Notes under the pieces: model-generated
Seen by the model: the letters and a program-made list of their open reading frames with translations, nothing else
Database searches by the model: none
Told to the model about the DNA's origin: nothing
Made by a program: the position numbers and the translations under genes
Shown: in pieces, positions 5,041-46,573 of the stretch
Numbering within the stretch: the stretch's first letter is position 1
How the letters are laid out: each line of letters begins with the position of its first letter
Assembly: GCA_050950285.1 (NCBI GenBank)
Contig: JBMNHG010000002.1
Span: 504,654 to 568,653, forward strand
Source of the DNA: Kiritimatiellia bacterium
Lineage (GTDB): Bacteria; Verrucomicrobiota; Kiritimatiellia; RFP12; JBMNHG01
DNA length: 64,000 nucleotides
Direction of reading: 5' to 3'

Positions 5041-5049
5041 TCCCGCCGC

Positions 5050-5075
5050 AAAAAAAACGGCGCGCCGTTTTTTTT
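5050..5075. terminator. Bidirectional rho-independent terminator (A8-CGGCGCGCCG-T8)
   Basis: Sequence GCAAAAAAAACGGCGCGCCGTTTTTTTTGC: a GC palindrome flanked by an A-run and a T-run, immediately after the tsaB stop. Confidence 0.8.
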
Positions 5076-5093
5076 GCCACCTTCGACCCGACC

Positions 5094-14703: not shown

Positions 14704-14772
14704 GGGGAAAAGAGAGCAAAAAGCATGCCCGCGACTTCGTGCCTGAGGAATCGGCAATCGTCCGTCTTATTA

Positions 14773-14922
14773 CTAACCCGGCCACAAATAGCGTTGCTCA
14801 CGGAGATTCAGGCATTGGGAGCTGGAATTTGGAGTTGGGAAAGGGGCATGGACATTCCTGTCCGTGTCACGGGTTGGAAAACCCGTGCCCCTGTTTTGCA
14901 GTATGAATTGTGGCCGAGTTAG
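14773..14922. mobile_element. MITE copy 1 (150 bp, TIR CTAACCCGGCCACAA / TTGTGGCCGAGTTAG, TA target-site duplication)
   Basis: Terminal inverted repeats with one mismatch, flanked by TA at 14771-14772 and 14923-14924. The same flanks occur uninterrupted at ~19927-19955 (GTCCGTCTTATTAC|TTCTTCCTTGTTTC), i.e. an empty site. A second copy lies inverted at 55516-55665. No ORF is encoded. An internal hairpin is CACGGGTTggaaAACCCGTG. Confidence 0.8.
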
Positions 14923-15135
14923 TACTTCTTCCTTGTTTCGTAATCGGTTAGCGGCAGGGGGTGAGGGGGCGATGCAATTCAAGTGCGAGGGGTAGCAAAA
15001 AAATCGTGTTTTTTGTGTTTGCACGAACGTTTGTAATATGATCCTGGCCAACTTTGTTCCGTTGACAACCTTCGCATAGGTTTGCAACAATCAGTTCCAC
15101 ATTCTTCACGTTGTTTGCCAGGGAGGCAGTTGTCC

Positions 15136-18100
15136 ATGAATTCGCGCCGTTTGTTCTCCAGGTTTGCCTGTTCGGTCATCGCGACAGCCGCATGCGTCGG
15201 CATCGCCAGCGCCGCTTCGCCCGTCGATGTGGACGGCCTCACGCTCTGGCTCGACGCCAATGACTTCGCAAAGTACCCAACCGGCACAAAGGTGCCTTCC
15301 TGGACGGACAAGGCGAGCAGCCTTCCTTTCACGCAGGGCACCGATTCCGTGCGACCGACCGTGAACAAGGAAGGTCCAAACAACAAGACGGTCGTCCACT
15401 TCGAGCGCCCGAACCCCGGCAACCCGAAGCAGACGCAGTATCTCGAGTGCCAGAACAATACCTTGAAGACCCTCTTCCAGGCACCCCACACATCGTTTGC
15501 AGTCGCGCGCGGCACGGCTGCCGGCGGCAACGGCGGCAAGGAGAACGCCACGTACGTCTACGCGTTGCCGGGCTACCACAGCGGCCTCCAGTTCTGGGCG
15601 GACGGCGGAAACAACCTGGTCCCACCCACGCAGGCTGGCGCAATCCGCTGGCTGTCCAACTCGTCGGGCGGCAATGTCGATGGGAACTTCGACCTCCGTG
15701 CGTCCTACACGGCAGGCGAGTACATCATGCTCTCGGCCGTCGTCAATGGCTATAGCTACAATACCCCCGGCGTATCGCTGGACGTCTTCATCAACAACGA
15801 GCCCGTCAATTCCGGCAGCAATGCCGGCAAGTACCTCTACAAGCAGACCAGCGAGTGCGCCCTCGTGCGCATCGGCGCTTCGAACAACAGCGCCGACTGG
15901 TCCGGCGGCCTGAACGGCGACATCGCCGAAATCCTCGTCTTCAACCGCGTGCTTTCCGAGGCGGAACAGAGAACCGTCTGGAAATACCTCGCCAACAAAT
16001 GGGGGCTCGTCGGCTTCGCGATCGGGAACCCCGTGACCCACAGCCCGCTTTACATTTCATCCGGCACGGTCTCCATCATCTCCCATCCCGAAATCGTCGA
16101 GGGCATGGAATACCAGCTCTCCCTCGAGGCAGAGGCAGACAATCTTTCAGAGGCAGACTGGATGGCGTCCTCCACCCCGTTCCCGGAAACCTACTCCTTC
16201 CCCACCCCGGCCGAGGATGGCGACGTGACCATCTATCTTTGGACGCGCACCACGGGCGAAAACGCCGGGACGAACTCCGCCCCCGCGACCATCGCATACA
16301 CCACGGTCGCCCCGACCGCCGTCGCCAAGGACATCTCGATCGCGATCGACAGCGTAACCGGATATCCGCTTTCCGCTTCCGAAATCGACAATGGCTCCTC
16401 CGACGCAACCGGCATCTATTCGCTCTCGGTTGATCCCGGCGTCATCCGCTTCGCGACCAACGTGACGCTCACCGTGATGAACAACGCGGGCCTCGCCTCC
16501 ACCGCGACCGCGCACGTGTCCATCTCCTCTCTCCTCGACATCCACGTGGAGACGGACGGCAATGACGGCCTTGGCGACGGTTCCGCAGGATCTCCCTTCG
16601 CCACCATCTCCCATGCGATCGACGTCGCGAACAACGCGAACGACGGCAACTTCCGCACGGTCTACGTCGGCGAAGGCACCTTCTCCGCCGCTTCCGGCGA
16701 AGTGTTCCCGTACACCGTCTCCAACAACGTGGCGATCGCCGGTTCCGGCATCGGGCGCACGATCGTCGATGGCAACCGCACCGGCAACTTCATGAACCTC
16801 GTCGCCTCCACGACACCATCCCGCATCGCCGGCCTCTCGCTCCGCCGCGCGCAGCGCTACGCGATCAACGCCGAGTCCTGGGGCGGCGTCATCGAGGACT
16901 GCGAGATCAGCGACATCTCGAACACCTACAATTTCATCTTCGTGAACGAAGCTTCCGCGCGCGACTTCACCCTGAGCGGACTCGTCGTGACCAACATCAC
17001 GGGCTCGACTTCATCGAAGCAGCTCATGGATCTGCGCGGCGCGACTGGCGGACTGCTCACGATCACGAACTGCTTCTTCGACAACATCTCCACGCCAAAC
17101 GCGGCGTGGCAGCATGGCGGCAACATCCGCATCATGGGTTCGATAAAAGTTCAAACCGCCGGCTGGAATTCGGAAGTTGTCGACACCGTCTTCGCGAATT
17201 TCACGGCCCCCGGCGGCAACCATGGGGAAGGTTCCTGCATCATGTACGGCAAGACGGCCGACTACGGCTACCATCGGATCGACCGTTGCGTCTTCCACGA
17301 CATCGACTTCACCAACAACGGCGAAGTGTTCATCGGCGGCGACAATGCGAACGCCACCGGCCAGACGCTGGAGATCTGCAACAGCCTCTTCTACAACATC
17401 CACTTCAAGAACAACGGGCCGAGCTACACGTCGAGCGCAGTCGGCGGATTCCGCGTCGCCCCGATCGTCTACAACTGCACCTTCCACAATGTCGACACCG
17501 TGGTGCGCCCGTTCACCGGTTCGGCCCTCAAGGTGTACAACTCCAGCATCAGCGACTGCGCCCACCTCGCGATGGCGAACAACCCCACGACGTACGTCTA
17601 CCTCAACAACGTGAACGTCTGCAACACGGGCGACGCCTCGAACTACAGCGCAGCGAACAGCTCGAACGTGACTTCGTACGACCCCTACTACAAGAACGCG
17701 TCTTCCGCGAACTTCAAGCTCAAGCCCCTGAGCCTGCTCGTCGACGCCGGCAACAACGCGAATGTCCAGGGTGCGAATGACCTCGCGCACGGCGTGCGTA
17801 TCGCCGACGGCAACGCGGATGGAACCGCGACCGTCGATATCGGAGCATACGAGTACGATCCCTCCGCCGCCGGCGCCCGCTTCGTCGCAGGCGCCGCAGT
17901 CTACGGCGTCTTCGAAGGCAAGAGCGTTGCAATCCCCGTCTGGATCGAACCCGCGATGGCACGTGATCCAATCACCGCCAATGTCGCCTGCCCCGCCGGC
18001 ATCACCGGCGCGGCGACGCTCTCCTTCACGACCGGCCTTGAGACGAACCACCTCGTCGTCACCGCCGCCGATCCGCTGGACGTCCCGAACGGCACGCTTC

Positions 18101-19815
18101 TCGAACTCGGCATTTCGGATGCCGACGAAGATCTCGATTCCACGTCGATCGGCCTCATGGTGAACACGCGCGAAGTCTCGATTCCCGGCCTCGCCCCGCG
18201 CGTCTTCCTCCGCGACGGCGAAAGCGCCTCGTTCACCCCGCAACTCCCGAACGAATTCTTCGCCGCGCCCGAAACCATCGCCATCACGGCGGGCTCGCAA
18301 GCGGGCGACATCGGCAACACGATTTCATGGAACGGCACGGGCATTGCGGCCGGAACCAACGCCGCAGACGGCACGCTCTCGCTCGTCAGCGGCGGAACGG
18401 GCCGCACCACGCTCGACCTCTGCCTTCCCAGCGGATGGACCTTCGCCGGATCCGGCGAGGACACCCTCGCCATCGAGGTGGTCGGCTTCGAGCCCCCGCT
18501 CTACATCTCGCCCGACGGCAGCGATGCGACAGGCGAAGGCACCGAGGACTCCCCGCTCCGCACGATGACCTACGCGACCCCGCTCCTCCGCGCGGGTGAA
18601 ACGCTCCGCCTCCTTCCCGGCGTCTATGGCCCGACAGACGCCGAAGTCTTCCCCGTGACCGTCCCGCCGGGCATCGCCCTCGTCGGCGAACGCGGCGCGG
18701 GCGACGCGCCTGAAACCACCGCGATCATCGATCCAGACGCCACCGGAAACGCCTTCGTCCTTGGCACGCTCGGCGCCGACCAGGGCAACATCCCGGGCGG
18801 CGCACTCCGTTCGCTCGTGATCCGCAATGCGGCAGGAACGGGCATCTACGGACGCTTCTGGGGTGGCGACATCACGGACTGCGCGCTGCGTGACTTTGCC
18901 CCGGGCACCTTCCTCGGCTCCTGCTCCGCGCTCTACATCAACCCGTCCCGCGGAAACGTGGTTCTCTCCGGCACGGAAATCGGCTGCATCACCTCGAGCA
19001 TGTCGGTGGTTGCCTACGTCGAATCGGGCAACGGCTCGCTGACCGTCACGAACTGCTGGTTCCACGACCTCAAAGGCACGGGCGAAACGGCTTGGGAACA
19101 CACGGGCGGCATGTTCAACTCGCGCGTGCCCGTCACGGTCATGGACTCCGTCTTCGAGGACATCGTGATGCCCGGAAACGGCGGAAGCGAATCCATGGGC
19201 GTGCTCCATGCGTACAATGTCCACGCCGAATACCACCGCAACATCTTCCGCCGCATCGCGATTCACGAATACCACTTCAACTACGCGCTCCTTGCCGGCA
19301 ACCGCGACACGCCGCTCGTCGCGAACTGCCTGTTCCACGACATTACAAGCGCCGGAACCCGTCAGGTCCTGGGCGGGTACAGCGCCACCTTCAACGTCGT
19401 GAACTGCACCTTCGACAACATCCCCGCGCTCTTCTCGAGCTACGACGTCAAAGGCCGCACCCTGAGAAACTCCTCCGTGAGCCACTGCGACGCAATCAAC
19501 CTCGGTGAACAGGGAACAACGCAAGTCGTGCTGAAGAACGTGAACCTCTACGACGTCGGCGAAGGCACGGGCTTCGCGACCAACTTGAGCGAGAACGTCA
19601 CGTTCGTCGATCCCGGCTACAAGAATCCCGGAGCAGGCAACTACCACCTGCGTTCCTCGAGCGCGCTCGTGAATGCCGGCGACAACACGCTCGTTGTCGG
19701 CACGACGGACCTCGACGGCAACGACCGCATCTTCCGCGCGGACAAGGGCGGCATCGTCGACCTCGGCTGCTACGAGAACTCGACCCTCGGCGGCACGGTC
19801 TTCCTGCTCCGCTAG
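15136..19815 (+). CDS. Giant secreted LamG-domain / 2x DUF1565-type parallel-beta-helix protein (~1559 aa) with C-terminal GTVFLLR tail
   Basis: Signal peptide MNSRRLFSRFACSVIATAACVGIASAASP. LamG/concanavalin-like module (DGLTLWLDANDF ... GDIAEILVFNRVLSEAEQRTVWKYLANKWGL). Two pectin-lyase-fold/DUF1565-like units (SPFATISHAIDVANNANDGNFRTVYVGEGTF and SPLRTMTYATPLLRAGETLRLLPGVYG). Ends ...GCYENSTLGGTVFLLR*. Confidence 0.8.
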   Translation: MNSRRLFSRFACSVIATAACVGIASAASPVDVDGLTLWLDANDFAKYPTGTKVPSWTDKASSLPFTQGTDSVRPTVNKEGPNNKTVVHFERPNPGNPKQTQYLECQNNTLKTLFQAPHTSFAVARGTAAGGNGGKENATYVYALPGYHSGLQFWADGGNNLVPPTQAGAIRWLSNSSGGNVDGNFDLRASYTAGEYIMLSAVVNGYSYNTPGVSLDVFINNEPVNSGSNAGKYLYKQTSECALVRIGASNNSADWSGGLNGDIAEILVFNRVLSEAEQRTVWKYLANKWGLVGFAIGNPVTHSPLYISSGTVSIISHPEIVEGMEYQLSLEAEADNLSEADWMASSTPFPETYSFPTPAEDGDVTIYLWTRTTGENAGTNSAPATIAYTTVAPTAVAKDISIAIDSVTGYPLSASEIDNGSSDATGIYSLSVDPGVIRFATNVTLTVMNNAGLASTATAHVSISSLLDIHVETDGNDGLGDGSAGSPFATISHAIDVANNANDGNFRTVYVGEGTFSAASGEVFPYTVSNNVAIAGSGIGRTIVDGNRTGNFMNLVASTTPSRIAGLSLRRAQRYAINAESWGGVIEDCEISDISNTYNFIFVNEASARDFTLSGLVVTNITGSTSSKQLMDLRGATGGLLTITNCFFDNISTPNAAWQHGGNIRIMGSIKVQTAGWNSEVVDTVFANFTAPGGNHGEGSCIMYGKTADYGYHRIDRCVFHDIDFTNNGEVFIGGDNANATGQTLEICNSLFYNIHFKNNGPSYTSSAVGGFRVAPIVYNCTFHNVDTVVRPFTGSALKVYNSSISDCAHLAMANNPTTYVYLNNVNVCNTGDASNYSAANSSNVTSYDPYYKNASSANFKLKPLSLLVDAGNNANVQGANDLAHGVRIADGNADGTATVDIGAYEYDPSAAGARFVAGAAVYGVFEGKSVAIPVWIEPAMARDPITANVACPAGITGAATLSFTTGLETNHLVVTAADPLDVPNGTLLELGISDADEDLDSTSIGLMVNTREVSIPGLAPRVFLRDGESASFTPQLPNEFFAAPETIAITAGSQAGDIGNTISWNGTGIAAGTNAADGTLSLVSGGTGRTTLDLCLPSGWTFAGSGEDTLAIEVVGFEPPLYISPDGSDATGEGTEDSPLRTMTYATPLLRAGETLRLLPGVYGPTDAEVFPVTVPPGIALVGERGAGDAPETTAIIDPDATGNAFVLGTLGADQGNIPGGALRSLVIRNAAGTGIYGRFWGGDITDCALRDFAPGTFLGSCSALYINPSRGNVVLSGTEIGCITSSMSVVAYVESGNGSLTVTNCWFHDLKGTGETAWEHTGGMFNSRVPVTVMDSVFEDIVMPGNGGSESMGVLHAYNVHAEYHRNIFRRIAIHEYHFNYALLAGNRDTPLVANCLFHDITSAGTRQVLGGYSATFNVVNCTFDNIPALFSSYDVKGRTLRNSSVSHCDAINLGEQGTTQVVLKNVNLYDVGEGTGFATNLSENVTFVDPGYKNPGAGNYHLRSSSALVNAGDNTLVVGTTDLDGNDRIFRADKGGIVDLGCYENSTLGGTVFLLR

Positions 19816-19944
19816 AGAAATTCTCAAAAAAAAAACGGCGCGCCGCGAAGTGGACCCCCATTTCGCGGCGCGCCGCTTTGCGGCGGCAGAGGAAGAAGCC
19901 AACGCGACCCGGCGGGCGGTCTCTTTGGCCGCCGCAGTCCGTCT
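19681..19944 (+). repeat. Direct repeat copy A (~260 bp, >97% identical to 25441..25704)
   Basis: Covers the last ~135 bp of CDS 15136..19815 plus ~130 bp downstream, including the terminator hairpin. Identical apart from single-base differences (e.g. GTTGTCGGC vs GTTGCCGGC). Confidence 0.85.
19826..19880. terminator. Palindromic terminator-like hairpin (A10-CGGCGCGCCGCGAA-12nt loop-TTCGCGGCGCGCCG)
   Basis: Perfect 14-bp stem. The A-run upstream gives a U-run for minus-strand transcripts; CTTT follows on the plus strand. Confidence 0.55.
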
Positions 19945-20022
19945 TATTACTTCTTCCTTGTTTCCATCGCAATGACTCTGTACATTTTTGTTTTCAATTC
20001 ACTCCCAAGGAGCATGTTGTTT

Positions 20023-23000
20023 ATGAAGAAATCGTGGAAGTCGGCGACTGTCGGCGCCATGGTGGCGCTGTTGTCCATTGGCGTGTTCGCGGCGTGTCCT
20101 GAAGGCCTGGATGGCATGGGGCTTACCATCTGGCTCGATGCGACCGACATCGATGGCCTGGGAGATGGCAACCCCGCGGAAAACACCGCGATCAACAGCT
20201 GGACGGACAAGGCAAGCGGACTCCAGTTCACACCGATCATCGGCGGCTATACTGCCGACCAGCATCTGCCGCACCTTTATTCGAACGGGCGCGCCGGCAA
20301 GGACGTCGTCTCGTTCGGTCGCGTGAACGCGATCAACCAGGCACAGTATCTTGGCGCAACCGATTCGCGCATCGCCACACTCTTCGACAACACGAACACG
20401 GCGTTCGTGGTCGCCCAGGCCACGCTGGGTGGCAGTGACAACAACACCCAGACGACAACCTACTTCTTCGCCCGCAAAGGCTGGCACTCCGGCTTTGGCT
20501 TTATGGGTTACCCGCTGGCGACAGCGTTGCAAAACACCCGCTGGTTCGGAGGTACGGCCGCTAACGCCAACAATAAAAACATGATGCCGGCAGCACCGTA
20601 CACGAACGGCACATGGATCGCCGCCTCGCGCATCATCCGCGGCGGCACGACGATCGTCGGGGCCTCGTCCGAAATCTTCATCAACAACCGTTTGAGGGCG
20701 GCATCGACCAATGCGACCGAATCTCTCTGGGGCCATGGAGGCAGCGCCAACACGATGTATGTCGGATGTTCGGGCACGCAAAATGGCACCTACTGCGGCG
20801 GCATGTCAGGCCACATCGCGGAAATGCTCATCTTCAACCGCGAGCTGACTGCGGAAGAGCATGCGAAGGTCTGGAAGTACCTGAACGCACGCTGGCAGCT
20901 CGCCGGTGACGACGAGTACACATACGATGACGGCGTCATCCGCTCGAATGACGGCACCGTCAAGCGCACCGTTCTCGGCGGCGGCAAGTTCTGCTACGAG
21001 TTCACCGTGCCACGCGGCGAAATCAAGGTCTCGCCCGTCAGCGCATCGGTTCTCGAGCGTGCGCTGCTCGTGGGTGCGGGTGGCGCGGGCGGCCTCACGC
21101 TCGGTGGCGGCGGCGCAGGTGGCGGCGTCGTGGAGTATGCCGACCTCGACGTGACTCTCCCCCAGGAATTCACCCTCTCCGTCGGCGAAGGCGGTGTTGG
21201 CTACCATCTTTGCAATCTCGCCAGCGCCTTTTGGGCGACCAAGGGCGGAAACGGCGGCAAGACCACGCTTCATGTCGATGGGAACGAATACGTCGCGTAC
21301 GGCGGTGGCGGAGGCGCTTCATGGAGCGCGACCGCTGCGGACTCGACGTCGGGTTCGACCCCGCTCGCCAATGCCGGCGGCGGCTCCGGCGCCGGCGGCA
21401 AGGGCGGCATCGGCATCGACCACAATGGCGCCGATGTCGTCGGTTTCGCCATCAGCCATGGAAACGGCGCCGGCGGCGGCGGCGGCGCCGGCGGCGACGG
21501 CCAGGCAGCTTGCCAGAGCGGGACTCTCTACTATGCCGGTACGGGCGGATGCGGCGTCACCAACAACACCACCGGCATCGAAGTCGAATACGGCGCCGGC
21601 GGCGGTGGCGGCGGCGGCAACGGCATCCATCGCGGCCTCGCGGGCGGCGTGTCGGCCGGCGACGGCGGCGAGGCCAGCCAATTTGGCGGCCCGCAAATTG
21701 GATTCGATGGTCTCGATGGCCGCGGTGGCGGCGGTGGCGGCGGCGGCTATGCCTATGCCTGCTCCGGAGGCCGCGGCGGTTCTGGCGCCGTGATCCTCGT
21801 CATCCAGAAGAAATCGTTCGCGATCGCGGATTCCTTCTCGCTTTTCCCCGAGGCTACGGCACGCGGTGAAATCGTCGCTACATACGTCGGGGAAGCCGAG
21901 GAAGGTTCAACCTATCTTGTCTCGCTCGAGGGCGATTCCACGCAGCTGCCCTCCGTGGGCTGGACGGCCTGCGGCGGCGACCTGCCGACGTTCCAGTTCC
22001 CAACCAACACACCATACGGCACCGTCACGGTCTACTACCACGTGAAGGATGTCGGCGGCGATATCGCGACGTATTCGGCGCAGATCGCATACGTCGATCC
22101 TGCCGATTGCGTTCCCATGGTCACCGTGAAGGACGCCATGGTCACGTATGACGAATCCATCGGCGGCGTGACGCCGATCACGGTCGACATGGTCAAGGTT
22201 TCCGTGGAAGACGACTACGGGATCTATTCCGAGACACTCGACGTGACGGGCATCTGCACGGCGTCCACGAACACGACCCTCACGGTCACGAACCGCCTTG
22301 GCATCGCGGCCGGCGCAACCGCGACGGTCACAGCCTCCACGCTTTTGTGCTTCGTCTCGCCCGATGGCGATGACGGGACCGGAACGGGCTGGAGCGATGC
22401 CCCCCTCAAGACGATCACGAACGCCCTCGCTCTCGCGGAAGCGGGATACACCTTCGACGGCCTGCAACGCACGGTCTACCTCATGGAGGGTACCTACAGT
22501 GCCTCCGACGGGCAATCCTTCCCCATCACCCTGGTGGAAGGCGTGAACTTCAAGGGCGCCGGAATGGGCAAGGCGATTGTCGACGCCGAAGGTGCTGCCA
22601 ACCATCTGGTCATTCCTTCATCGACCGTGCCGTTTGCAATCTCCGGTTTCTCGCTCCGTAACGCGCAAGCGCGTTTCCTCCAGGCGTCTGCGGCGAACTT
22701 CGCACTCAAAGACGTCGAGATGAGCGGCTGCGCCACCGGCAATGGCTGCATCTACATCTGTACCTACGCCAATGCTCGCACGGTTTCGTTCGAGAACCTG
22801 GTGATGACGAATATCGCCGTGACGGTGAACCAGGGCCAGCTGGTCCACGCCGGTGGCTCGGGTGCGCTGTCGTTCGACAAGTGCCGCTTCGCGGACATCG
22901 CCATTGCCTGGGCCGGCAATGGCACCGGTTTCAAGGTCTGCTATGCGCAGAACACGGGCGCCGACCATTTCTACGCGTCGGGCTGGCCGGCAACGGTCAC

Positions 23001-25575: not shown

Positions 25576-25704
25576 AGAAATTCTCAAAAAAAACGGCGCG
25601 CCGCGAAGTGGACCCCCATTTCGCGGCGCGCCGCTTTGCGGCGGCAGAGGAAGAAGCCAACGCGACCCGGCGGGCGGTCTCTTTGGCCGCCGCGGTCCGT
25701 CGCT
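25441..25704 (+). repeat. Direct repeat copy B (pairs with 19681..19944); partial third copy at 28725..28775
   Basis: Near-identical 3' CDS end plus downstream hairpin (hairpin at 25586-25640). A truncated version of the same hairpin follows the next gene (AAAAACGGCGCGCCGCGAAGTGGACCCCCATTTCGCGGCGCC). Confidence 0.85.
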
Positions 25705-25770
25705 CCCCCGCGCGATTGTTGACGAAGAAACGGCGTTTTGATACGGTGCCCGAATAACAAGGAGAGTTCC

Positions 25771-28713
25771 ATGATCAAGATGTTTCCGTCGTTCCGTGCC
25801 GCGGTCGTCGCCGCAGCGTGCGTGGGTGGGATTTCGTCCGTCGCGATCGGTTCGCCGCTGCGCGTCTCGGTGATGGGCGACAGCTATTCGTCGTGGAATC
25901 CGGCCGATCTTCCCGGCCACTATGCGGCGTCCTGCGCGGCCAACGGCACGGGATACGGCTTTGGCTTCGCCGGCATCACGGATGTCAACGAGACGTACTG
26001 GATGAAGTTCATCCACCACGTCGGCGGCACCCTCGAGATGAACAACTCGTGGGAGAGCTCGCGCGTGACGAACGGCGGCACGATGCGCAAGTCGTTCATC
26101 CATCCGGACCGCATCGACGACATCGGAAGCCCCGACATCCTGCTCGTCTGCGGCGGCATGAACGACGCGTGGGGCACGGACAACGGCGTCGCGCAGCTCG
26201 GCGACTTCAAGTATTCCGACTGGACGGCTGACGACCTGACGAAGTTCCGTCCCGCGCTCGCCTATCTGATCGACCATCAGAAGACGCAGCACCCGGACAT
26301 GGAGATCATCGTCGTCATCAACTCCTTCGACGACGCGGGCGGCGGCACCGGCGGAAGGCCCGGCCTCACGCGGGAGTGGTGCGCCTCGATGGCGCAGATC
26401 GCCGACCACTACGGCGTCCTTTCCGTGCAGTGCCACGACATCGAAAAGTACAGCGAACATCCGACGGCGACAGGCTTCACGGCCATGGCCAACCAGATCG
26501 CCGCGGCCTGGGACGCGGAACATCCCGCCGTTCCCCCGGCCACGTTCGAAGAGGCCGATCCGTCGGCGCGGAGTGTCGAGACGCCCGAGGGCATCGCCTA
26601 CGTGTTCACCAACGCGGCGCACGCCGTCCGGCTCACCACCGGCGTGGACCTGTGCCTCGTGCGCGCGCTCCTCGTGGGCGGCGGCGGCGAGGGCGGCCAC
26701 GTCATCGGCGGCGGGGGCGGCGGGGGCGCGGTCGTCGAGCGGACCGACATCCTGGACATTCCGGCCGGCAGCGAACTGCGGATCAAGGTCGGCGCGGGCG
26801 GCTCGACTCCCGGCAAGCCCGCGGACGGCCTGTACATGATGAACCAGGCCTCGTGGCACAGGCAGAGCGGCGCGAACGGCAGCGCTTCCGTCTTCAGCTT
26901 CAGCAACACCGTCTATTCGGCGGCGGGCGGCGGCGGCGGCGCTTCGTGGAACACGAACATCGGCGGCGCGGGCGCCAGCGGCGGCGGCGGTTCGGGCGAG
27001 AAGACGGACGGCCTGCCCGGTCTCGGCGGCGAGGCCTGGGACGGCAACAAGGGCGGCGACGTCAGCAAGGGCGGCGGTCCCTTCGACTACTTCGCGGGCG
27101 GCGGCGGCGGCGCAAGTGCGGCCGGCGAGGATGGCGGCACGGTCCCGTCGACTTCCGGCCGCGGCGGAGAAGGAAGGACGGTCGAGATCGCCGGCACGAA
27201 CGTCGTCTACGGTTCGGGCGGCGGCGGCGGCGGCGGCAACGCCGCAATTGCGGCGGCGGGCGGCACCAACGGCGGCGCGGGCGGCGCCGGAAATGCCGGC
27301 AACCCCCGATCGCCTCTCGGGCAGCCCGGCTTCCCGGGCGTCGACGGCGCGGGCGCGGGCGGCGGAGGCGGCGGCTTCGAGCTGTACAACCTCAATGGGG
27401 ACTATCCCTGCTACACGGGCGGAAACGGCGGTTCGGGCGCGATTATCCTTGTTTTCGCGCCGTCCAACCAACCCAGCCTGAGGGTCGCCGTCGCCGAAAA
27501 CCCGAAGACCGAGGCGACCATCAACTTCCGCCTGACATCGGTCGGCGAGGGTGCTGCGCAGGCCGAAATCTTCCTCGCATACGGAACGCCCGGCCATCTT
27601 GGCGAGTACGTTTCGGTCGGCACGCTCCCGGGGGGCGCGTCCGGCAGCCACAAGCTGACGGGTCTTGCGCGGGGCGCCGAATACGCCTACAGCGTGAAGG
27701 CGGTCACCGACGCCCAGCCGCCGGCCGAGGTCGTTGTCAACGGCTCGTTCGCCACGCTGCCTCCGTTCCAGGAAGTCACGATCGAGGAAGCCGATCCGTC
27801 CGCCCGGACAATCACGACGACGGAAGGAACGGCCTACGTCTTCACGAACACGGCCCAGTCGATTACCTTCGCCTACGCCAGGGGAAGAAAGCTCCTTCGC
27901 GCGCTCGTCGTGGGCGGCGGCGGAGAGGGCGGACACATCATCGCGGGCGGCGGAGGTGGCGGAGAGGTCGTCGAACTGGACGACGAACGGTTCATCCCGG
28001 CGGAAACCACGGTCACGATCAGGGTCGGAAAGGGCGGCTCGACGGTCGGGAAGCCGGGACGCTACGACATGAACGCCTGGTCCGGACACTACCTCGCCGG
28101 CGTGATGGGCGAAAGCTCCACGCTGACCATCGGCTCGACGTCCTGCACGGCTTTCGGCGGCGGTGGCGGCTGGTCGTGGGACTCGACCTCGGGCGGCGCC
28201 GGCGCCAACGGCGGCGGCGGCGCGGGCGAGAAGGTCGCAAACAGTTACGGCTACGGCTTGAACGGCGGACATGACGGCGGCAGGGGCGGCATCCTGCTCC
28301 AAAGCCCGTACGACATCGCCGCAGGCGGCGGCGCTGGCGCGGGTGAAGGCGGCGAGGACGGCGGCACGGTCGCCATGACCTCCGGACGCGGTGGCGAGGG
28401 CGTGACGAACTCGATCACCGGCGTGGCCGTCGTCTACGGTTCGGGCGGCGGCGGCGGCGGCGGCAACGGCATCCATCCTGCGGCAGGCGGCACGAACGGC
28501 GGCGACGGCGGCACCGGCAACCTGGCCGGCGACGTCCACGACATCGTCGGCCGGTGCGGTTATCCGGGCGTGGACGGCACCGGCTCGGGCGGCGGCGGCG
28601 GCGGCTTCAAGATGGACGGCCTCCACTGCTACACGGGCGGCAACGGCGGTTGCGGAACGGTCATCCTGGTTTTCAAGGAAGACTCCCCGGCCACCCTCAT
28701 CATGCTCCGGTAG
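25771..28713 (+). CDS. Secreted SGNH/GDSL-family hydrolase fused to 2x Gly-rich modules (~980 aa), C-terminal ATLIMLR tail
   Basis: RBS AAGGAGAG 5 nt upstream. Signal peptide MIKMFPSFRAAVVAAACVGGISSVAIG. SGNH blocks: VSVMGDSYSSWN (GDS-x), LLVCGGMNDAWG (GxND), SEHPTATGF (D/HxxH-like). Two ~300-aa Gly-rich repeats (RALLVGGGGEGGHVIGGGGGGGAVVE ... YGSGGGGGGGN ... YTGGNGGSGAIILVF and RALVVGGGGEGGHIIAGGGGGEVVE ... YGSGGGGGGGNGIH ... YTGGNGGCGTVILVF). Confidence 0.75.
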   Translation: MIKMFPSFRAAVVAAACVGGISSVAIGSPLRVSVMGDSYSSWNPADLPGHYAASCAANGTGYGFGFAGITDVNETYWMKFIHHVGGTLEMNNSWESSRVTNGGTMRKSFIHPDRIDDIGSPDILLVCGGMNDAWGTDNGVAQLGDFKYSDWTADDLTKFRPALAYLIDHQKTQHPDMEIIVVINSFDDAGGGTGGRPGLTREWCASMAQIADHYGVLSVQCHDIEKYSEHPTATGFTAMANQIAAAWDAEHPAVPPATFEEADPSARSVETPEGIAYVFTNAAHAVRLTTGVDLCLVRALLVGGGGEGGHVIGGGGGGGAVVERTDILDIPAGSELRIKVGAGGSTPGKPADGLYMMNQASWHRQSGANGSASVFSFSNTVYSAAGGGGGASWNTNIGGAGASGGGGSGEKTDGLPGLGGEAWDGNKGGDVSKGGGPFDYFAGGGGGASAAGEDGGTVPSTSGRGGEGRTVEIAGTNVVYGSGGGGGGGNAAIAAAGGTNGGAGGAGNAGNPRSPLGQPGFPGVDGAGAGGGGGGFELYNLNGDYPCYTGGNGGSGAIILVFAPSNQPSLRVAVAENPKTEATINFRLTSVGEGAAQAEIFLAYGTPGHLGEYVSVGTLPGGASGSHKLTGLARGAEYAYSVKAVTDAQPPAEVVVNGSFATLPPFQEVTIEEADPSARTITTTEGTAYVFTNTAQSITFAYARGRKLLRALVVGGGGEGGHIIAGGGGGGEVVELDDERFIPAETTVTIRVGKGGSTVGKPGRYDMNAWSGHYLAGVMGESSTLTIGSTSCTAFGGGGGWSWDSTSGGAGANGGGGAGEKVANSYGYGLNGGHDGGRGGILLQSPYDIAAGGGAGAGEGGEDGGTVAMTSGRGGEGVTNSITGVAVVYGSGGGGGGGNGIHPAAGGTNGGDGGTGNLAGDVHDIVGRCGYPGVDGTGSGGGGGGFKMDGLHCYTGGNGGCGTVILVFKEDSPATLIMLR

Positions 28714-28969
28714 GCGGCAGCCTGGAAAAACGGCGCGCCGCGAAGTGGACCCCCATTTCGCGGCGCCGGCAATTCTGGGACTGCAACGAGCGTGGGCGTC
28801 CCCGCCATCCCGTGGACAAGCAGGCGCTCATCCCTTGTCTCCCGGTCCCCTCCGGCGCCCCCTTCCCGGCCAGCCAAACATCCTGGAACTCCTGGTTTCT
28901 CTGGAACGAAGCGGGTGAAATATGCTACGGTGCGGAAAACATCATCCTGAAAGGCCGGCCAACGTGAAC

Positions 28970-31441
28970 ATGAAATCTTCCATTGCAATCGCGACGATGG
29001 CGCTGGGTGTTTTTGCATTTGCGGCGCATGCGGCGATTCCCGAGCCCGTTGTCTGGTTTGTGGGCGACAGGGGCGTCATCACCAACGCCAGCGGCAAGGT
29101 CACGGCCTGGCAGAACCAGGGTTCGCTCAAGTCCGGCGAACTTGTCGAGGTCGTGGCGAACTCGCAGGACTCGACGATCTCCATCGTCAACAACTCGTTT
29201 TTGAAGCACCGTCCGTGCATCCGCTTCCTTGGCGACGAGGTGTTCCTCCGCTCTGCGGGCGCGACCGATCTCGACCTCAATCAGTCCGATGGCCTGACCG
29301 TCTTTACGGTATCCTACTGCATGGACTTGTCCAAGTCCGGGGTCTACGCGCTCGACAGCGACCAAACCGGTGTCTGGCGCTTCGGCCGTGACATCCACCC
29401 GACGGCCAGGCTGCGCCGCGTCTTCTTCTTCGCGATGAACTATTCCCAGCCGAACACCGTATTCCCGGCGCTTACGCCGCTGCTCGACTCGACGTTCGCC
29501 TGCATCACAAGCGGTGGCACATTCCTCAACACCTTTACATCCGGCAAGCCCGAACCGCAGCGCCCGGGACTTCCCAAGGAATTCGGCACGGTCCGTTCCG
29601 CGACATTCAGCGTGGGCCGGAACCTCCTTTCCGAAACGGGGTTCCACGGCGACATCGCCGAGATCAGGATCTACAACCGGGTGCTGACTCCCGCCGAGCG
29701 ACTGACAGTCGATGGCGAACTTGCCGTGCGCTACGGGAACAAGCTGATGCTCGATGAAACCTCGACCCTGACGACCGACATGCTCGGGGATTGCGATCGC
29801 GATGTCGCGGTGATCGGCTATGCGCTGGAAGGCGGTCGCGATATCGGCGAACCTCCGGCGAGCGCCACAAGCGGAGCGCTGACGATCTCCCGCGAGGCCC
29901 CCGTCGACAAGAACCTCAACACCCTCGTCTGCGCCGTGCGCGACCACTATGCTGGAACCGACTGCACATGGTGCATCGGCGGTTCCGAAGCCGCGCGCCA
30001 GCTTCCGCTTGCGCTGGCGTTCACTGGAAGCGAGTTCGCCTCGACTCCGCATCTCAAACTCTTCTATCAAGCCGACAAGAACTCCAACGCCGAGAATACC
30101 GGCATCGAACCCGAGTATGCCGGGAACGGGCTCGTCTTCGCGCTGCCCGCAGGCTGGGCAAACGGCCGTTATTTCGTGCGGACGCGTGCCGACATCCTTC
30201 GTCCCGCCGTCTGGTTCAAGGCCGATGTCGGCGTGACGACCAACGCCGGCGGCGTTGTCACGAAGTGGGAGAATCAGGGAATGCTCGGCGATGTGCTCGA
30301 CATGACGCCTTCGGCCGCGACCGATGGCATCACCCTTGCAAGCAATGCATTCGGCACCAAGCCTGCCGTGCGCTTCGACGGAACGGATTACCTGAAGAGC
30401 GCTTCCGCGACGGATTTCGACCTTACGTCCCAGGGTGGCGCGTGGTTCATTGTCGCAAACGGCAATTTCAGCGACTATGACTCGAACCGTGGTTTCTTTG
30501 GATTGGACAATGGCGGATCGACAGCATGGCGCTTCGGACTTTTCTCCGTCAACCGCTGCCGTCTTTGCGCGGCATTTTTCGCGAAACCCGACAATGGCGG
30601 CGTTTCAAGTTTCGACTTCTGCGATGGGACAAAGGTCGGCGGTCCCGGCAATTTCGCGAAGACGCACAACGGCGAAATCCTTGGCAAGAACATCTGGGTG
30701 TCCACGGCCTATGTTTTCCAGCAACCCGCCGACATACGCCAATACGGCTTCGTCGCCGGCAAGAATTACGACGATATCGGCAGCGGCTATTCCTTCCCCG
30801 GCTGGTCGGCCTGGTCGGGCATAAAACGCAGCGGTGAATTCCGTCTTGGCCACAGTGGCATTTCCGGCACGGCATGGAACAACCTCGTCGGCGACATCGC
30901 GGAATTCCGCCTCTATAACCAGCCGTTGACATCGGCCGAGCGCGCGTCGATCGAACTCGAGCTGGCACTGGCATATGGCCTTCGTCTCGAGACGTTCGGC
31001 GGCGTCGATGTCGCGGACCATCCCGAAATTTCCGCGCATCGCATGGATTCGAATGTGTTCGGGACGCAGTACAACGGCGGCAGGCTGGCCGAACCCGGGA
31101 GTGCGTGGGCCGACGACATGCTCGAGATTTCGAAGACGTCGGCTTTTGATTTGATGATTTTGACCTGCGTCGGCTCTGACGGAGCGGAGAAGGAAGATCG
31201 CACGTGGCATGTCCTGACCACGGGAACGAACACGTGGAATTTCACCTTCACCCCGGGCGGCAGGACCGCAGGCAAGACATATGTCCTCCAATGCAAGGAA
31301 AAGGGTGCATCGGACTTCGCGGCACTCGACGTCGAACCGACGATCGGCGAGCATACCGTCTCGTTCGCCCTGGAATCCATGTCGACCGGAACCTACCGCC
31401 TCCGAACGCATCCCGCCGGAACCCTGTTCTTCTTGCGCTAG
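28970..31441 (+). CDS. Secreted double-LamG-domain protein (~823 aa), C-terminal GTLFFLR tail
   Basis: Signal peptide MKSSIAIATMALGVFAFAAHAA. Two concanavalin/LamG-like modules (...GDIAEIRIYNRVLTPAERLTVDGELAVRYG and ...GDIAEFRLYNQPLTSAERASIELELALAYGL). Ends PAGTLFFLR*. Confidence 0.75.
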   Translation: MKSSIAIATMALGVFAFAAHAAIPEPVVWFVGDRGVITNASGKVTAWQNQGSLKSGELVEVVANSQDSTISIVNNSFLKHRPCIRFLGDEVFLRSAGATDLDLNQSDGLTVFTVSYCMDLSKSGVYALDSDQTGVWRFGRDIHPTARLRRVFFFAMNYSQPNTVFPALTPLLDSTFACITSGGTFLNTFTSGKPEPQRPGLPKEFGTVRSATFSVGRNLLSETGFHGDIAEIRIYNRVLTPAERLTVDGELAVRYGNKLMLDETSTLTTDMLGDCDRDVAVIGYALEGGRDIGEPPASATSGALTISREAPVDKNLNTLVCAVRDHYAGTDCTWCIGGSEAARQLPLALAFTGSEFASTPHLKLFYQADKNSNAENTGIEPEYAGNGLVFALPAGWANGRYFVRTRADILRPAVWFKADVGVTTNAGGVVTKWENQGMLGDVLDMTPSAATDGITLASNAFGTKPAVRFDGTDYLKSASATDFDLTSQGGAWFIVANGNFSDYDSNRGFFGLDNGGSTAWRFGLFSVNRCRLCAAFFAKPDNGGVSSFDFCDGTKVGGPGNFAKTHNGEILGKNIWVSTAYVFQQPADIRQYGFVAGKNYDDIGSGYSFPGWSAWSGIKRSGEFRLGHSGISGTAWNNLVGDIAEFRLYNQPLTSAERASIELELALAYGLRLETFGGVDVADHPEISAHRMDSNVFGTQYNGGRLAEPGSAWADDMLEISKTSAFDLMILTCVGSDGAEKEDRTWHVLTTGTNTWNFTFTPGGRTAGKTYVLQCKEKGASDFAALDVEPTIGEHTVSFALESMSTGTYRLRTHPAGTLFFLR

Positions 31442-31491
31442 CCGCGGCGCGAAGCGGACAAGGCCCGGCGAACGGACCACAGGCACGTGCC

Positions 31492-34400
31492 ATGACGATA
31501 CGAACCACGATCCCCATCTTCTTCCTGCTCTGCGCATGCCTTCCCATCGCGCAGGCGGTTGATTTCGAATACACGCTCGAAGAGGACGCATCGGTCACGA
31601 TCGTCATCGAGGACGAAGAGGGATGCCGCGTGCGCAATCTCGTTTCGGAAGCGCAGCGCACGAAGGGGCTTGTCACGGAAACCTGGGACGGGCGCAACGA
31701 CATCGGGCAGTCCGTCGAACCCGGCGTCTATCGCTGGCGCGGAATCCGGCATGGCGGGATCAAGAGCCACTATATCGGCAACTTCTGTTCGCCGCACTCC
31801 GAAGGCGCGACTCCCTGGAAGCATCTCGACGCGGAGGGCATCCGCACGCAGGAGGGCGGCAATGGCGGCGGATGGCTTTCCGATCACGCCGCACCGTCGA
31901 TTGCGCTTGCGGTCGGCGATGAAATCCTGCTCGGTTGCAACCTCGCCGAGGAAGGCGATTCGATCATCCGCGTGACGCCCGAAGGCAGGAAGATCTGGGG
32001 TGCGCGCTGGCAGGCTCTCGTGTGCCCGGCCGCGATCGCGTTTGACCCGCGGGACGGCGCGCTCTATGTCGCCGGCGAAGGCGGCTGGATCGGCAAGGAC
32101 AGGCTGGTCGTCGTGCGCCGCCTCCTGAAGAATGGCAAGGTGACGAACTACCCCGTTCCAAAGGATGTCCGCGAACGCCTTGAAAAGCAGAATCCCGCCT
32201 TCGCGGACCAGCAACTCATCCGCCTGGCCCGCACGGAGTATTCGGGCCTTGTCGGCATGAGCGTCATCGGCGACTTCCTCGCGCTTGCGCTTACCGACAA
32301 AAACCGCATCGCGTTGTTCGATACCAGGACCGCGCTGCATGTCCGCGACATCCCGTTGCCGGAACCCGTGGCGCTTTGCGGGGATCACGCGATTTCGGGA
32401 AAGAACATCGTCCGGATCGATCCCGACAACGATGCCGTGATCGCCCTCTGCGAATGCGAGGAATTGCTTGAACCTCGCGGTCTCGCGATCGATGGCGAAG
32501 GCCACTTCCATGTCTCCGACGCCGCGCCCGGCGAAATGTGCGTGAAGGTCTTCAACGGGGAGGGACGCCTTGTGCGCACCATCGGCAAGAAGGGCGGGCG
32601 CAGAGAAGGGCGCTACGATCCGAAGGCGATGGATCGCCCTGCCGGCCTTGCCATCGATGCCAAGGGACAACTCTGGGTCACGGAGGACAGCCCGTACCCG
32701 CGGCGCGTATCGGTGTGGACGCCGGAAGGCAGGCTGGTGCGCGAGTTCGTCGGCGGCGCGCGCTATGGCGGCGGCGGTTCGATTTCCGGCGGCAAGGGCT
32801 ATTACGGCGGCATGCGCTTCAAACTGCACAAGGCTCCGCGGCAGGGCGAGCTCGAGGCGATCCTGTTCCGTCCCGAAGAGCATCCGGGGTTCCCGTTCGA
32901 CGTCGGCAAAAACTTTCTCGGCCCCGATCTCCATCAAACCGTCCTGTTCAACGGACGCCGCTATCTGATGGCGGACGATGGATGGGTGCGCTCCCTGACA
33001 ATCGTCGCGGAGGAAGTCGGCGATCGCGCCGTCCTGCGCGCCGCGTGGGGCGAAGCGAGCGAGCTCCGGAATGAGCAGCGGGCGGCAAACGGCGTCTTCC
33101 TCTGGAGCGACGCAAATGGCGATGGCCAGTATCAACCCGAGGAGCTTTCGGTTCATGGCGAGTATCACTTCAAGGCGCAGTGGGCGCTGAGGTCCGCGCC
33201 CGGCCTGGACGCGTTCTTCTACCATCGCGACGGGGACGGACGCCTTCGCATCGTGCGCATCCGGGCGCATGCGGACAGGAAATCGAAGGTGCCCCGGTGG
33301 GATTTCTCCACGCCGGTCGTCTATCCGATCGGCCGCACGCCGAACGACGAGATTATCGGCGCATCGCCGCTGGGGCACACCGACGACATCATCGTCAACT
33401 TGCGGGGATCCACGGGCGGAAGGTCGATGACCAACAACGTCCTCCTTTGCGCTTCGCCGGGCGGGCGGATCCGCTGGACCTATCCGAATCCATATCCGAC
33501 GAACGGAACCACGTCGCCCGTGCCGAAGCGCGGCGAGATCCGTCACACCCTCAATGCCGAAGGCTTCGCGGAGGCCGAAGGGTTCGGCATGGTCTGGCTG
33601 TTGAACGGCAATTTCGGGACGCGCTATCTTTTCTCGGAAGACGGACTTTTCATCACCGAGCTTTTCCGCGACCAGCGCGTGGCGGGAAGCTTCTACAACA
33701 TCCACGACGCGACGCCCGGACGCGTCCTGAGCGGGTATTCCGCTCTCGGCGAATGCTTCTACGGCTGGCTGGGCAATGGGGACGATGGCCGCGTCTTGCA
33801 GATCATCGGCAAGCAGACCTGCAACGTTTGCGAACTTTCGGGATTCGACACGTTGCGGCGTCTTCCGGGCGGGGAGGTCCATCTGGAAGAGCGCGCCGTG
33901 CCGCTCGGGGAACTGCCGCAACGCGAACGAAGCGCCATTCGGGCGATCGAGATGGAGGGCAACTGGATGCCGGGCGGAGAGCAGTGGTATCAAAACGCGC
34001 CCAACGTGATCGAGGCCGAAACACGCATTGCGGCATTCGCAGTGGGGTCGGGATACGGGGCGACGCTTGCGGTGCAGATTCGCGTGGAAGACGACTCCCC
34101 CTTCCTCAACAAGGGCGATGATTTCACCACGATGTTCCACACGGGCGATTGCGTGGACATCCGTTTTGCCGGCGATTCCAGCGCCGATCCGAAGCGAACC
34201 CGCGCGGTTGCCGGCGACGTGCGGTATCTCGTTGTTCCGGATGCGGAGGATCCGGGGAAGGCGCGCGTGATCCGCTACACGTACGTCGATCCGGAGGCGA
34301 AGGGCGAGCCCGTCGTGTTTGCGTCTCCTGTCGGAAGTTGCGAGATCGCGCGGGTCGAGGAGCTCAAGGGCTGCGGATCGCGGGTCGTGCGCGACAGGAA

Positions 34401-34629
34401 GGGCTATACGCTCTCCGTTACGATACCCGGCCACCATTTGCCGATTGAAAAGGGCAAGCGGCTTTCGGGCGCGACCTTGATGGATGTCGGCGTCATCTTC
34501 GGCAACGAGACGGGAAGCGAAGTAAAGCGCCGCGAATACTTCTTCGACGACGAAAGCCGCATCGTCCACGATATTCCGAGCGAAGCCGGCGTCAATCCTT
34601 CGCTGTGGGGAACGGTTCAATTCCGGTAG
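31492..34629 (+). CDS. Secreted NHL-repeat/beta-propeller-like protein (~1045 aa), C-terminal GTVQFR tail
   Basis: Signal peptide MTIRTTIPIFFLLCACLPIAQA. NHL-like repeats (GLAIDGEGHFHVSDAAPGEMCVKVFNGEGRLVRTIG ... GLAIDAKGQLWVTEDSPYPRRVSVWTPEGRLV). Ends WGTVQFR*. Confidence 0.7.
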   Translation: MTIRTTIPIFFLLCACLPIAQAVDFEYTLEEDASVTIVIEDEEGCRVRNLVSEAQRTKGLVTETWDGRNDIGQSVEPGVYRWRGIRHGGIKSHYIGNFCSPHSEGATPWKHLDAEGIRTQEGGNGGGWLSDHAAPSIALAVGDEILLGCNLAEEGDSIIRVTPEGRKIWGARWQALVCPAAIAFDPRDGALYVAGEGGWIGKDRLVVVRRLLKNGKVTNYPVPKDVRERLEKQNPAFADQQLIRLARTEYSGLVGMSVIGDFLALALTDKNRIALFDTRTALHVRDIPLPEPVALCGDHAISGKNIVRIDPDNDAVIALCECEELLEPRGLAIDGEGHFHVSDAAPGEMCVKVFNGEGRLVRTIGKKGGRREGRYDPKAMDRPAGLAIDAKGQLWVTEDSPYPRRVSVWTPEGRLVREFVGGARYGGGGSISGGKGYYGGMRFKLHKAPRQGELEAILFRPEEHPGFPFDVGKNFLGPDLHQTVLFNGRRYLMADDGWVRSLTIVAEEVGDRAVLRAAWGEASELRNEQRAANGVFLWSDANGDGQYQPEELSVHGEYHFKAQWALRSAPGLDAFFYHRDGDGRLRIVRIRAHADRKSKVPRWDFSTPVVYPIGRTPNDEIIGASPLGHTDDIIVNLRGSTGGRSMTNNVLLCASPGGRIRWTYPNPYPTNGTTSPVPKRGEIRHTLNAEGFAEAEGFGMVWLLNGNFGTRYLFSEDGLFITELFRDQRVAGSFYNIHDATPGRVLSGYSALGECFYGWLGNGDDGRVLQIIGKQTCNVCELSGFDTLRRLPGGEVHLEERAVPLGELPQRERSAIRAIEMEGNWMPGGEQWYQNAPNVIEAETRIAAFAVGSGYGATLAVQIRVEDDSPFLNKGDDFTTMFHTGDCVDIRFAGDSSADPKRTRAVAGDVRYLVVPDAEDPGKARVIRYTYVDPEAKGEPVVFASPVGSCEIARVEELKGCGSRVVRDRKGYTLSVTIPGHHLPIEKGKRLSGATLMDVGVIFGNETGSEVKRREYFFDDESRIVHDIPSEAGVNPSLWGTVQFR

Positions 34630-46312: not shown

Positions 46313-46533
46313 GGCACGGAAATCCCCTTGCTCGACCCAAGGCCCGCCCCGCCGGGACGGGGTCGGATCGGACGGCTGGAACGCCGGCCTATGGTGGCAG
46401 AACGATGTGGAGTCATGGCGGTCCCCGAAACAGGTGGGGGGTGAAACGTCCATGATATCCGATCCCCCCTCCCGAATCAATCGCGAGAAAGCAAAACGCG
46501 CGACCGCCGCGCCGGACAGGACGGGCGGGAGCG

Positions 46534-46573
46534 AAAAAAACGGCGCGCCGCGAAAAAAGCGGCGCGCCGTTTC
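46534..46573. terminator. Bidirectional terminator A7-CGGCGCGCCGC-gaaaaaa-GCGGCGCGCCG-TTT
   Basis: 11-bp perfect stem with a 7-nt A-rich loop. The upstream A-run gives a U-tract for minus-strand transcripts leaving the GH71 operon (stop at 46667). Confidence 0.75.

Follow-up and report, generated by a model that had tools for sequence, protein, structure and literature searches.

What kind of gene family is encoded by five giant genes standing head to tail, and how did two of them come to share nearly identical 3' ends? The question is raised by a stretch of 64,000 nt (hereafter the window) of chromosomal DNA from an uncultured Kiritimatiellia bacterium (GCA_050950285.1, contig JBMNHG010000002.1, positions 504,654 to 568,653), in which five plus-strand genes, here called g1 to g5, occupy positions 15136-34629. 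Here we present a comparative analysis of this array and of its surroundings. The observed genes, modules, repeats and hairpins, together with orthology, a conversion signature and the mark of purifying selection, make it probable that g1-g4 form a modular array of Sec-exported proteins shaped by duplication, module transfer and recent gene conversion at the 3' ends of g1 and g2, and kept under purifying selection. As such the array is an ordinary but clean case of giant modular exported-protein evolution in a poorly studied, glycan-degrading phylum. It is also the place where a short C-terminal tag, a candidate sorting or recognition signal, came to light, and the tag matters more than the array itself.

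Modular architecture of the array

The window has a GC content of 60-74%, and many of its long open reading frames (ORFs) are spurious. Filtering by the GC content of third codon positions (GC3) retained five consecutive plus-strand genes with GC3-supported frames, whose lengths are exactly those given in the original prediction, a note made from the letters of the sequence: 1559 aa (g1, 15136-19815), 1850 aa (g2, 20023-25575), 980 aa (g3, 25771-28713), 823 aa (g4, 28970-31441) and 1045 aa (g5, 31492-34629). All five carry signal peptides, that of g1 being of the Sec type, and the g1 protein is 100% identical to an NCBI entry, 'MAG: DUF1565 domain-containing protein [Kiritimatiellia bacterium]', from a metagenome-assembled genome (MAG), where it is encoded on a contig of 1.08 Mb.

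The first gene consists of a LamG module (aa 26-293, nt 15211-16014) and two DUF1565-type beta-helix units, A (aa 350-906, nt 16183-17853) and B (aa 1045-1547, nt 18268-19776), which are 26-41% identical; unit B ends in a choice-of-anchor Q domain. The second is collinear with it at 37-39% aa identity, the exception being a Gly-rich module (Gly_rich_2, aa 315-652, nt 20965-21978) inserted after the LamG (aa 23-295, nt 20089-20907) and ahead of two DUF1565-type helices, A (aa 707-1200, nt 22141-23622) and B (aa 1341-1838, nt 24043-25536). The duplicated beta-helix that had been predicted within each of these genes is present, and so is the predicted Gly-rich module, of which g2 has one copy and g3 two (unit A, aa 240-570; unit B, aa 639-976; repeat spacing ~1230 nt). 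The two g3 units are 49-57% identical to each other and ~40% identical to that of g2. A GDSL-like esterase domain, missed by the prediction, opens g3 (aa 32-245, nt 25864-26505; PDB 4nrd/4m8k, E 1.5e-28), and g4 comprises two LamG-containing units (aa 8-334 and 394-746) with 34-44% identity to each other. Internal duplication is present in all of g1-g4.

Profile scores agree with this map for most modules. For Laminin_G_3 (PF13385, gathering cut-off 27.6 bits) g4 scores 32.4 bits; the g1 LamG reaches 22.7 bits and stays under the cut-off, while aa 26-293 of g1 are 35% identical (E 1e-41) to the N-terminus of g2 and have the motif GDIAE...N..L..AE in common with g4. DUF1565 (PF07602, cut-off 20.3 bits) matches g1 with 68.9 bits over two stretches and g2 with 55.5 bits; Gly_rich_2 (PF21722, cut-off 24.3 bits) matches g2 with 35.8 bits and g3 with 66.3 bits over two stretches; and choice-of-anchor Q (NF041518, cut-off 25 bits) matches g1 with 39.9 bits, or 26 bits when confined to the last 100 aa. 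By comparison, the scores in the LIC10774/LIC10365 equivalog model NF047854, which needs 380 bits, are 64.9 and 56.1 bits, and the similarity is limited to the DUF1565 N-terminal part.

These shared and duplicated modules support the view that g1-g4 encode exported proteins of one modular, paralogous family. The prediction had counted five paralogues drawing on one small set of modules, and in that form it went too far. Its modular relationship stands for g1-g4, but g3 has neither LamG nor beta-helix, and g5 has none of the modules at all: profile search assigns it FlgD_ig and an NHL/SGL beta-propeller, and BLAST found no similarity between it and g1-g4, with which it has in common only the export features and a shortened form of the tag. 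The LamG signature GDIAE..[FY]N..L..AE, named in the prediction, was indeed found once each in g1 and g2 and twice in g4 (GDIAEILVFNRVLSEAE, GHIAEMLIFNRELTAEE, GDIAEIRIYNRVLTPAE and GDIAEFRLYNQPLTSAE), but it is characteristic of Laminin_G_3 proteins in general and is met again in unrelated LamG repeat proteins of low GC content (P0006-P0011). The latter are Ser/Thr/Asn-rich metagenomic proteins in which the LamG N- and C-terminal motifs, LWLDA.D...W.DKSG and G.I.E...YN..L...QRQ.[VI]E.YL..KWG, stand in long tandem arrays, and their composition is far from that of Kiritimatiellia.

The cluster has probably grown by tandem gene duplication combined with intragenic duplication of modules and with module transfer, as suggested by the Gly-rich module common to g2 and g3.

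Probable gene conversion between g1 and g2 at their 3' ends

The last 132 nt of g1, its stop codon, an A10 run and two hairpins (copy 1, 19681-19944, +) recur at the 3' end of g2 (copy 2, 25441-25704, +), giving direct repeats of 262-264 nt spaced 5.76 kb. An identity above 97% had been predicted, and alignment gives 97.7% (260 of 266 columns); copy 1 has T at 19697, an A-run of 10 and A at 19936, where copy 2 has C, an A-run of 8 and G. Of the tract, 132 nt are coding (44 sense codons; 45 with the stop) and 129 nt non-coding, the latter made up of the A-run, a hairpin with an 18-bp stem and a second long hairpin. Over the 1.2 kb upstream, g1 and g2 are 49-68% identical in DNA, and the boundary is sharp.

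Evidence on the origin of the tract comes from the sister-species MAG GCA_045627705.1, the sole sister genome compared. It encodes g1' (P0002, 1564 aa, 74-75% aa identity to g1), g2' (P0014, 1854 aa, 67% to g2), g4' (P0177, 831 aa, 72-73% to g4) and g5' (1044 aa, with the tag WGTVLFR). Across the last ~130 nt of coding sequence the paralogues g1 and g2 are 99% identical in DNA, as against 84% for g1 and g1' and 81% for g2 and g2'. Between 140 and 300 nt upstream of the stop the order is reversed, with the orthologues g1 and g1' at 81% and the paralogues at 54-69%. Paralogues are thus closer than orthologues inside the tract and more distant outside it, and the change in paralogue identity is abrupt and takes in synonymous and non-coding sites, as gene conversion would leave it. 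A different pair has been homogenised in the sister genome, where g1' and a paralogue at another locus (P0013, L037) are 91% identical at the end of the coding sequence and 100% identical over the next 46 nt. Since the paralogues reach 99% where the orthologues reach 81-84%, and since the sister species has homogenised another pair, the identical 3' ends of g1 and g2 are, on these sequence comparisons, best explained by lineage-specific gene conversion, and calling them gene-conversion-like, as the prediction did, was apt.

The g1/g2 block would then be a recent non-reciprocal recombination tract, in which one gene had its last 45 codons, its stop and its terminator overwritten by those of the other. 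The exchange was probably seeded by homology in the choice-of-anchor Q domain, the end of which is conserved. The process appears to act elsewhere in the family too, short 3' conversion tracts having apparently arisen independently in the two species, and the array itself would predate their split.

The non-coding part of the tract includes a 41-nt element of terminator type, an A-run followed by a GC-rich hairpin with the stem GGCGCGCCGCGAAxTGG, at 19831-19871 (+) after g1 and, in identical sequence, at 25589-25629 (+) after g2. The truncated third copy of the repeat that had been predicted after g3 does exist, as 41 nt of 100% identical sequence at 28726-28766 (+), 13 nt past the stop, but it consists of the first hairpin only and has no coding sequence. 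The 35-nt hairpin core has three matches in the window, vs none expected in shuffles. The folding energies of the hairpins are -35 to -44 kcal/mol (z -3.7 to -8.0), and an A-run stands upstream and a short UUU downstream; z is -5.8 to -5.9 for the 41-nt element, and the two tract hairpins folded together reach -77.5 kcal/mol (z -6.5). They may act in termination, and because g1, g2 and g3 each have a putative A-run/hairpin terminator of their own, these genes are probably separate transcription units.

The stem CGGCGCGCCGCG is of a generic terminator type in the window's genome, and an unrelated copy with another loop lies at 46533-46570; the loop sequence is common to the g1, g2 and g3 copies only. 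The stem is palindromic and contains an AscI site. The same design of A-run, stem, variable loop and T-run, which looks bidirectional, is met at 46533-46570, at L042 14822-14870 and at L037 6360-6415, the stem being conserved across loci and species and the loop not. A stem-only pattern retrieved from the metagenome contigs three unrelated ones of ~55-61% GC, with generic terminators, and an Rfam search of the whole window returned no family.

Other origins of the repeat

The alternative that fares best, though we consider it improbable, is that a small mobile or REP-like (repetitive extragenic palindromic) hairpin element was inserted after g1, g2 and g3, and that the identity reflects its recent spread. 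Three 100% identical 41-nt copies directly 3' of three stop codons are what such an element would leave, and the third copy lacks adjoining coding homology. The g1/g2 tract, however, reaches 132 nt into the coding sequence, in frame; neither terminal inverted repeats nor target-site duplications were seen; the 64-kb window holds no more copies, and the exact 35-nt hairpin has no match in the metagenome contig collection. The stem, moreover, is the generic one found again at 46533-46570.

Slightly less probable still is that strong purifying selection, not recombination, has kept the tag-coding end and the terminator identical. Many homologues conserve the choice-of-anchor Q end and the tag in their protein sequence, and the hairpin stem is found again at other loci. 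Selection of this kind does not account for the identity of synonymous sites and of 130 non-coding nt, to which the hairpin loop and the second hairpin belong, nor for the abrupt boundary. Conservation alone is also insufficient for 99% identity because a fourth paralogue in the genome that the window comes from (P0160, L042) matches the block at only 77% and differs in its hairpin loop, and because the orthologues stand at 81-84%.

An origin of the identical segments in a mis-join or a collapsed repeat of the MAG assembly is very unlikely. In its favour are short-read metagenome contigs that break at 25572, 25622 and 28737, all inside repeats, and the fragmentation of the sister MAG at the same intergenic regions, where the contigs bearing g1', g2', g4' and g5' end in intergenic repeats. 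Short-read assemblers behave in this way at genuine repeats, which explains why assemblies break at exactly these genes. Against an artefact, the unique flanks of the two copies differ on both sides and three sites differ between them, all reading frames are intact, and contigs 18 and 55 of the sister genome show the same pattern in a different sequence. A Joint Genome Institute (JGI) contig (L001), assembled independently from another sample, matches 19570-41441 at 99.95% and runs from g1-specific sequence through copy 1, the whole of g2, copy 2 and g3.

Stability of the array

No evidence was found that the array is diversifying. The ratio of nonsynonymous to synonymous substitution rates (dN/dS) between window and sister species is 0.22 for g1, 0.30 for g2, 0.14 for g4 and 0.11 for g5, and no 150-codon window exceeds 0.52: the array is under purifying selection. 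Contigs from five metagenome samples are 99.9-100% identical to the window and show no variants in copy number or module order, and the module order and protein lengths of the orthologues are kept in the sister species. The prediction of a diversifying adhesin family is not supported by these data. It is accordingly very doubtful that the repeats drive deletion, duplication or cassette exchange in a programme of diversification or phase variation of surface adhesins, as the 262-nt direct repeats 5.76 kb apart, the modular proteins and the A10 vs A8 difference might suggest, because in addition to the low dN/dS, the collinear orthologues and the lack of rearrangement in the five samples, no silent cassettes or invertible segments were seen and the sole variable homopolymer, the A-run, sits past the stop codon, in neither promoter nor coding sequence.

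Putative function and points of doubt

The proteins g1-g4 appear to be built from folds for recognising or processing carbohydrates: a LamG jelly-roll, a right-handed beta-helix, a Gly-rich domain and a GDSL esterase. In an AlphaFold2 (AF2) model, unit B of g1 has a beta-helix core of regular beta coils at a predicted local distance difference test (pLDDT) score of 70-86, whereas its C-terminal 68 residues, modelled from a shallow alignment, stay below 50. Foldseek places this model beside the PfbA adhesin, DFA-IIIase, PL6/PL9 lyases, GH87 and phage tailspikes, the probability being 1.0 for helices of the PfbA, PL6/PL9 and tailspike kinds. The AF2 model of g4 is of low confidence (mean pLDDT 49), its last eight residues being unstructured, and the four beta-helix units, once aligned, proved too divergent to serve as a locus-search query. 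A surface or extracellular location of g1-g4, and a role in glycan binding or cleavage, would be consistent with the signal peptides and with these folds.

A lipoprotein reading of g1, based on the sequence AAC, was set aside when the Cys proved to be missing from the orthologue P0002. It was also considered for g2 and g3, which have FAAC and AAC, respectively; the Cys is kept in the g2 orthologue P0014.

Several observations weigh against the reading of the array given above. The comparison uses one sister genome, fragmented at exactly these intergenic regions, and either gene may have been the donor in the conversion. An orthologue of g3 was not found in the protein collection, the best match having 37% identity, which could reflect presence/absence variation or, the sister MAG being fragmented, a gap in its assembly. 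Copy 1 of the JGI contig L001 looks like copy 2 in carrying g2-type variants at both of the distinguishing sites that it covers: within its positions 1-375 (window 19570-19944), 19697 is C and the A-run is 2 nt shorter, which could reflect homogenisation in the population or assembler ambiguity at the contig end. A simple terminator scan called none of the hairpins on the plus strand, where they were missed because their downstream U-tract is short. As to function, the Foldseek neighbours of g1 unit B have template modelling (TM) scores of 0.3-0.4, a PDB sequence search with g1 gave no relative, and an adhesin or glycan-binding role is suggested at the level of folds.

A C-terminal tag shared by unrelated exported proteins

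The 3' ends of g1-g4 have in common that they encode a short tag that follows, closely or exactly, the consensus [P/A/S]-x-x-G-[T/L/F/M]-four hydrophobics-[R/K]-COOH. In the array it reads GGTVFLLR in g1 (GTVFLLR, codons at 19792-19812) and g2 (25552-25572), PATLIMLR in g3 (28690-28710) and AGTLFFLR in g4 (31418-31438); g5 has the shortened WGTVQFR (tag codons 34609-34626). Two minus-strand genes of the window end in the same way. One is the convergent neighbour of g5 at 34755-38030, coding for a protein of 1091 aa with the tag AGTLILLR (34758-34778); the other lies at 53381-55015 (start approximate) and encodes ~545 aa with the tag PGTILFVR (53384-53404). Neither has a Pfam match, and they are unrelated to g1-g4 and to each other. 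All seven proteins, g5 included, bear signal peptides, that of the 53381-55015 protein being MKTTPFPLAVLAVLSLCATCAAAA; the exported GH71 enzymes of the window are without the tag.

By a rule that did not include the Gly, the tag stands at the C-terminus of 6 of the 24 window proteins, the shortened variant of g5 falling outside the six, while at internal positions it occurs at a rate of 7.4e-4 (binomial P ~2e-14). It was found again in 86 of 226 homologues collected with the beta-helix unit, Gly_rich_2 and LamG as queries, three families unrelated to one another. For the beta-helix unit, ~50 of its 150 best relatives are tagged, in every case 5-10 residues past the '...VDLGCYE' that closes the domain, as are ~28 of the 55 relatives of Gly_rich_2, and relatives of g4 carry the tag too. 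Of 72 unique tails, 81% have Gly at position -7, although Gly at -7 was not used in selecting them; T, L, F or M stands at -6, hydrophobic residues fill -5 to -2, the residue at -1 is R in 78% and K in 22%, and -10 and -9 are rich in P, A and S.

No sorting-domain model of Pfam or NCBIfam (the C-terminal domain (CTD) of type IX secretion systems (T9SS), PEP-CTERM, LPXTG, GlyGly-CTERM and others) matched the last 100 aa of the six tagged proteins at E<=10, and we found no description of the tag or of the g1-g4 gene family in the literature. The tag has been seen in two Kiritimatiellia MAG species, taxon names being rare among the tagged homologues. A scan of genome contigs returned the sister MAG only, plus distant LamG proteins of Opitutales, Rickettsiales and others, and the 80 long ORFs in the loci so obtained gave no convincing tag.

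A hydrophobic run of 4-5 residues is too short for a membrane anchor, and recurrence on unrelated signal-peptide proteins makes the tag a candidate sorting or recognition signal. More specifically, it is a tentative possibility, and one that we take seriously, that the tag is an undescribed miniature sorting signal, by which some of the giant Sec-exported proteins would reach the cell surface or the outside in Kiritimatiellia and possibly in gut/rumen relatives among the Planctomycetes-Verrucomicrobia-Chlamydiae (PVC) bacteria. If this is so, the g1/g2 tract would be a 'tag plus terminator' cassette kept uniform by recombination, the surface and secreted proteome of Kiritimatiellia would be definable from sequence alone, and a machinery for recognition or processing would be implied in PVC bacteria.

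Homologues from other lineages have alternative C-termini at the position of the tag, including the T9SS-like ...KIIKE, the dockerin-like ...NKLNTSCP and ...FYRVGVQ, which fits the choice-of-anchor concept. Several beta-helix homologues end alike: P0016, P0019, P0021, P0028 and P0036 in …DLIFVRN[KR]LN…CP, P0074, P0092, P0108, P0109, P0111 and P0155 in …FYRVGVQ, and P0088, P0102, P0110 and P0133 in …NRFLRLR[VI]…P. These recurrent motifs may be further lineage-specific sorting signals.

Relation to known systems

Concerted evolution by gene conversion is known from tandem families of surface proteins, such as the beta-helix Pmp paralogues of Chlamydia and the Opa proteins of Neisseria. The array resembles these in that adjoining paralogues encode large exported proteins of beta-helix or lectin type and that a short tract is homogenised while the remainder diverges. 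It differs in that the g1/g2 tract is confined to the extreme 3' end and the terminator and does not involve variable exposed parts, and in that the orthologues are stable and under purifying selection, with no sign of antigenic or phase variation and no autotransporter barrel.

Like the choice-of-anchor proteins defined by Haft (NF041518), in which one passenger domain is combined with different C-terminal sorting signals, g1 scores above the cut-off of that model; unlike those with known ends, the Kiritimatiellia members close with a 7-residue tag that Pfam and NCBIfam do not match. The tag shares with the signals of the LPXTG/sortase, PEP-CTERM/exosortase, GlyGly-CTERM/rhombosortase and T9SS CTD systems its place at the extreme C-terminus of proteins with signal peptides. 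As in the tripartite signals, it stands on many unrelated passenger domains and runs from a small motif (G-T) through a hydrophobic stretch to a basic residue, but the stretch is only 4-5 residues long and the basic residue is single. The ~80-aa beta-sandwich of the T9SS CTD is absent.

With 55-69 bits to PF07602, the helices of g1 and g2 are related to DUF1565 proteins and to Leptospira surface proteins of the LIC10774 type, and the predicted beta-helix is of the kind seen in PfbA, PL6/PL9 lyases and phage tailspikes. They depart from LIC10774 (65 vs 380 bits) in having two helices each, fused to LamG and Gly-rich modules.

Genomic surroundings

The array region is flanked by housekeeping genes, among them those for NAD-ligase, TatA/C and fructose-bisphosphate aldolase, and the window also encodes exported glycan enzymes (two GH71, a DUF5696/GH101-like and an F5/8 type C protein). 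Upstream of g1, 335 nt (14802-15135) separate the array from the minus-strand gene at 11928-14801. In the sister species the corresponding interval (L007 1180-9806), between the orthologue of that gene and g1', is ~8.7 kb long and holds five extra genes, for a SASA esterase, a GT2 glycosyltransferase, UbiA, a DUF1638/hydantoinase protein and a 791-aa protein. Further upstream, a long plus-strand VWA/DUF4159 ORF (4404-10544) contains a 321-nt unit (107 codons) repeated in tandem, with 4.3 copies at 98% identity between 7794 and 9171.

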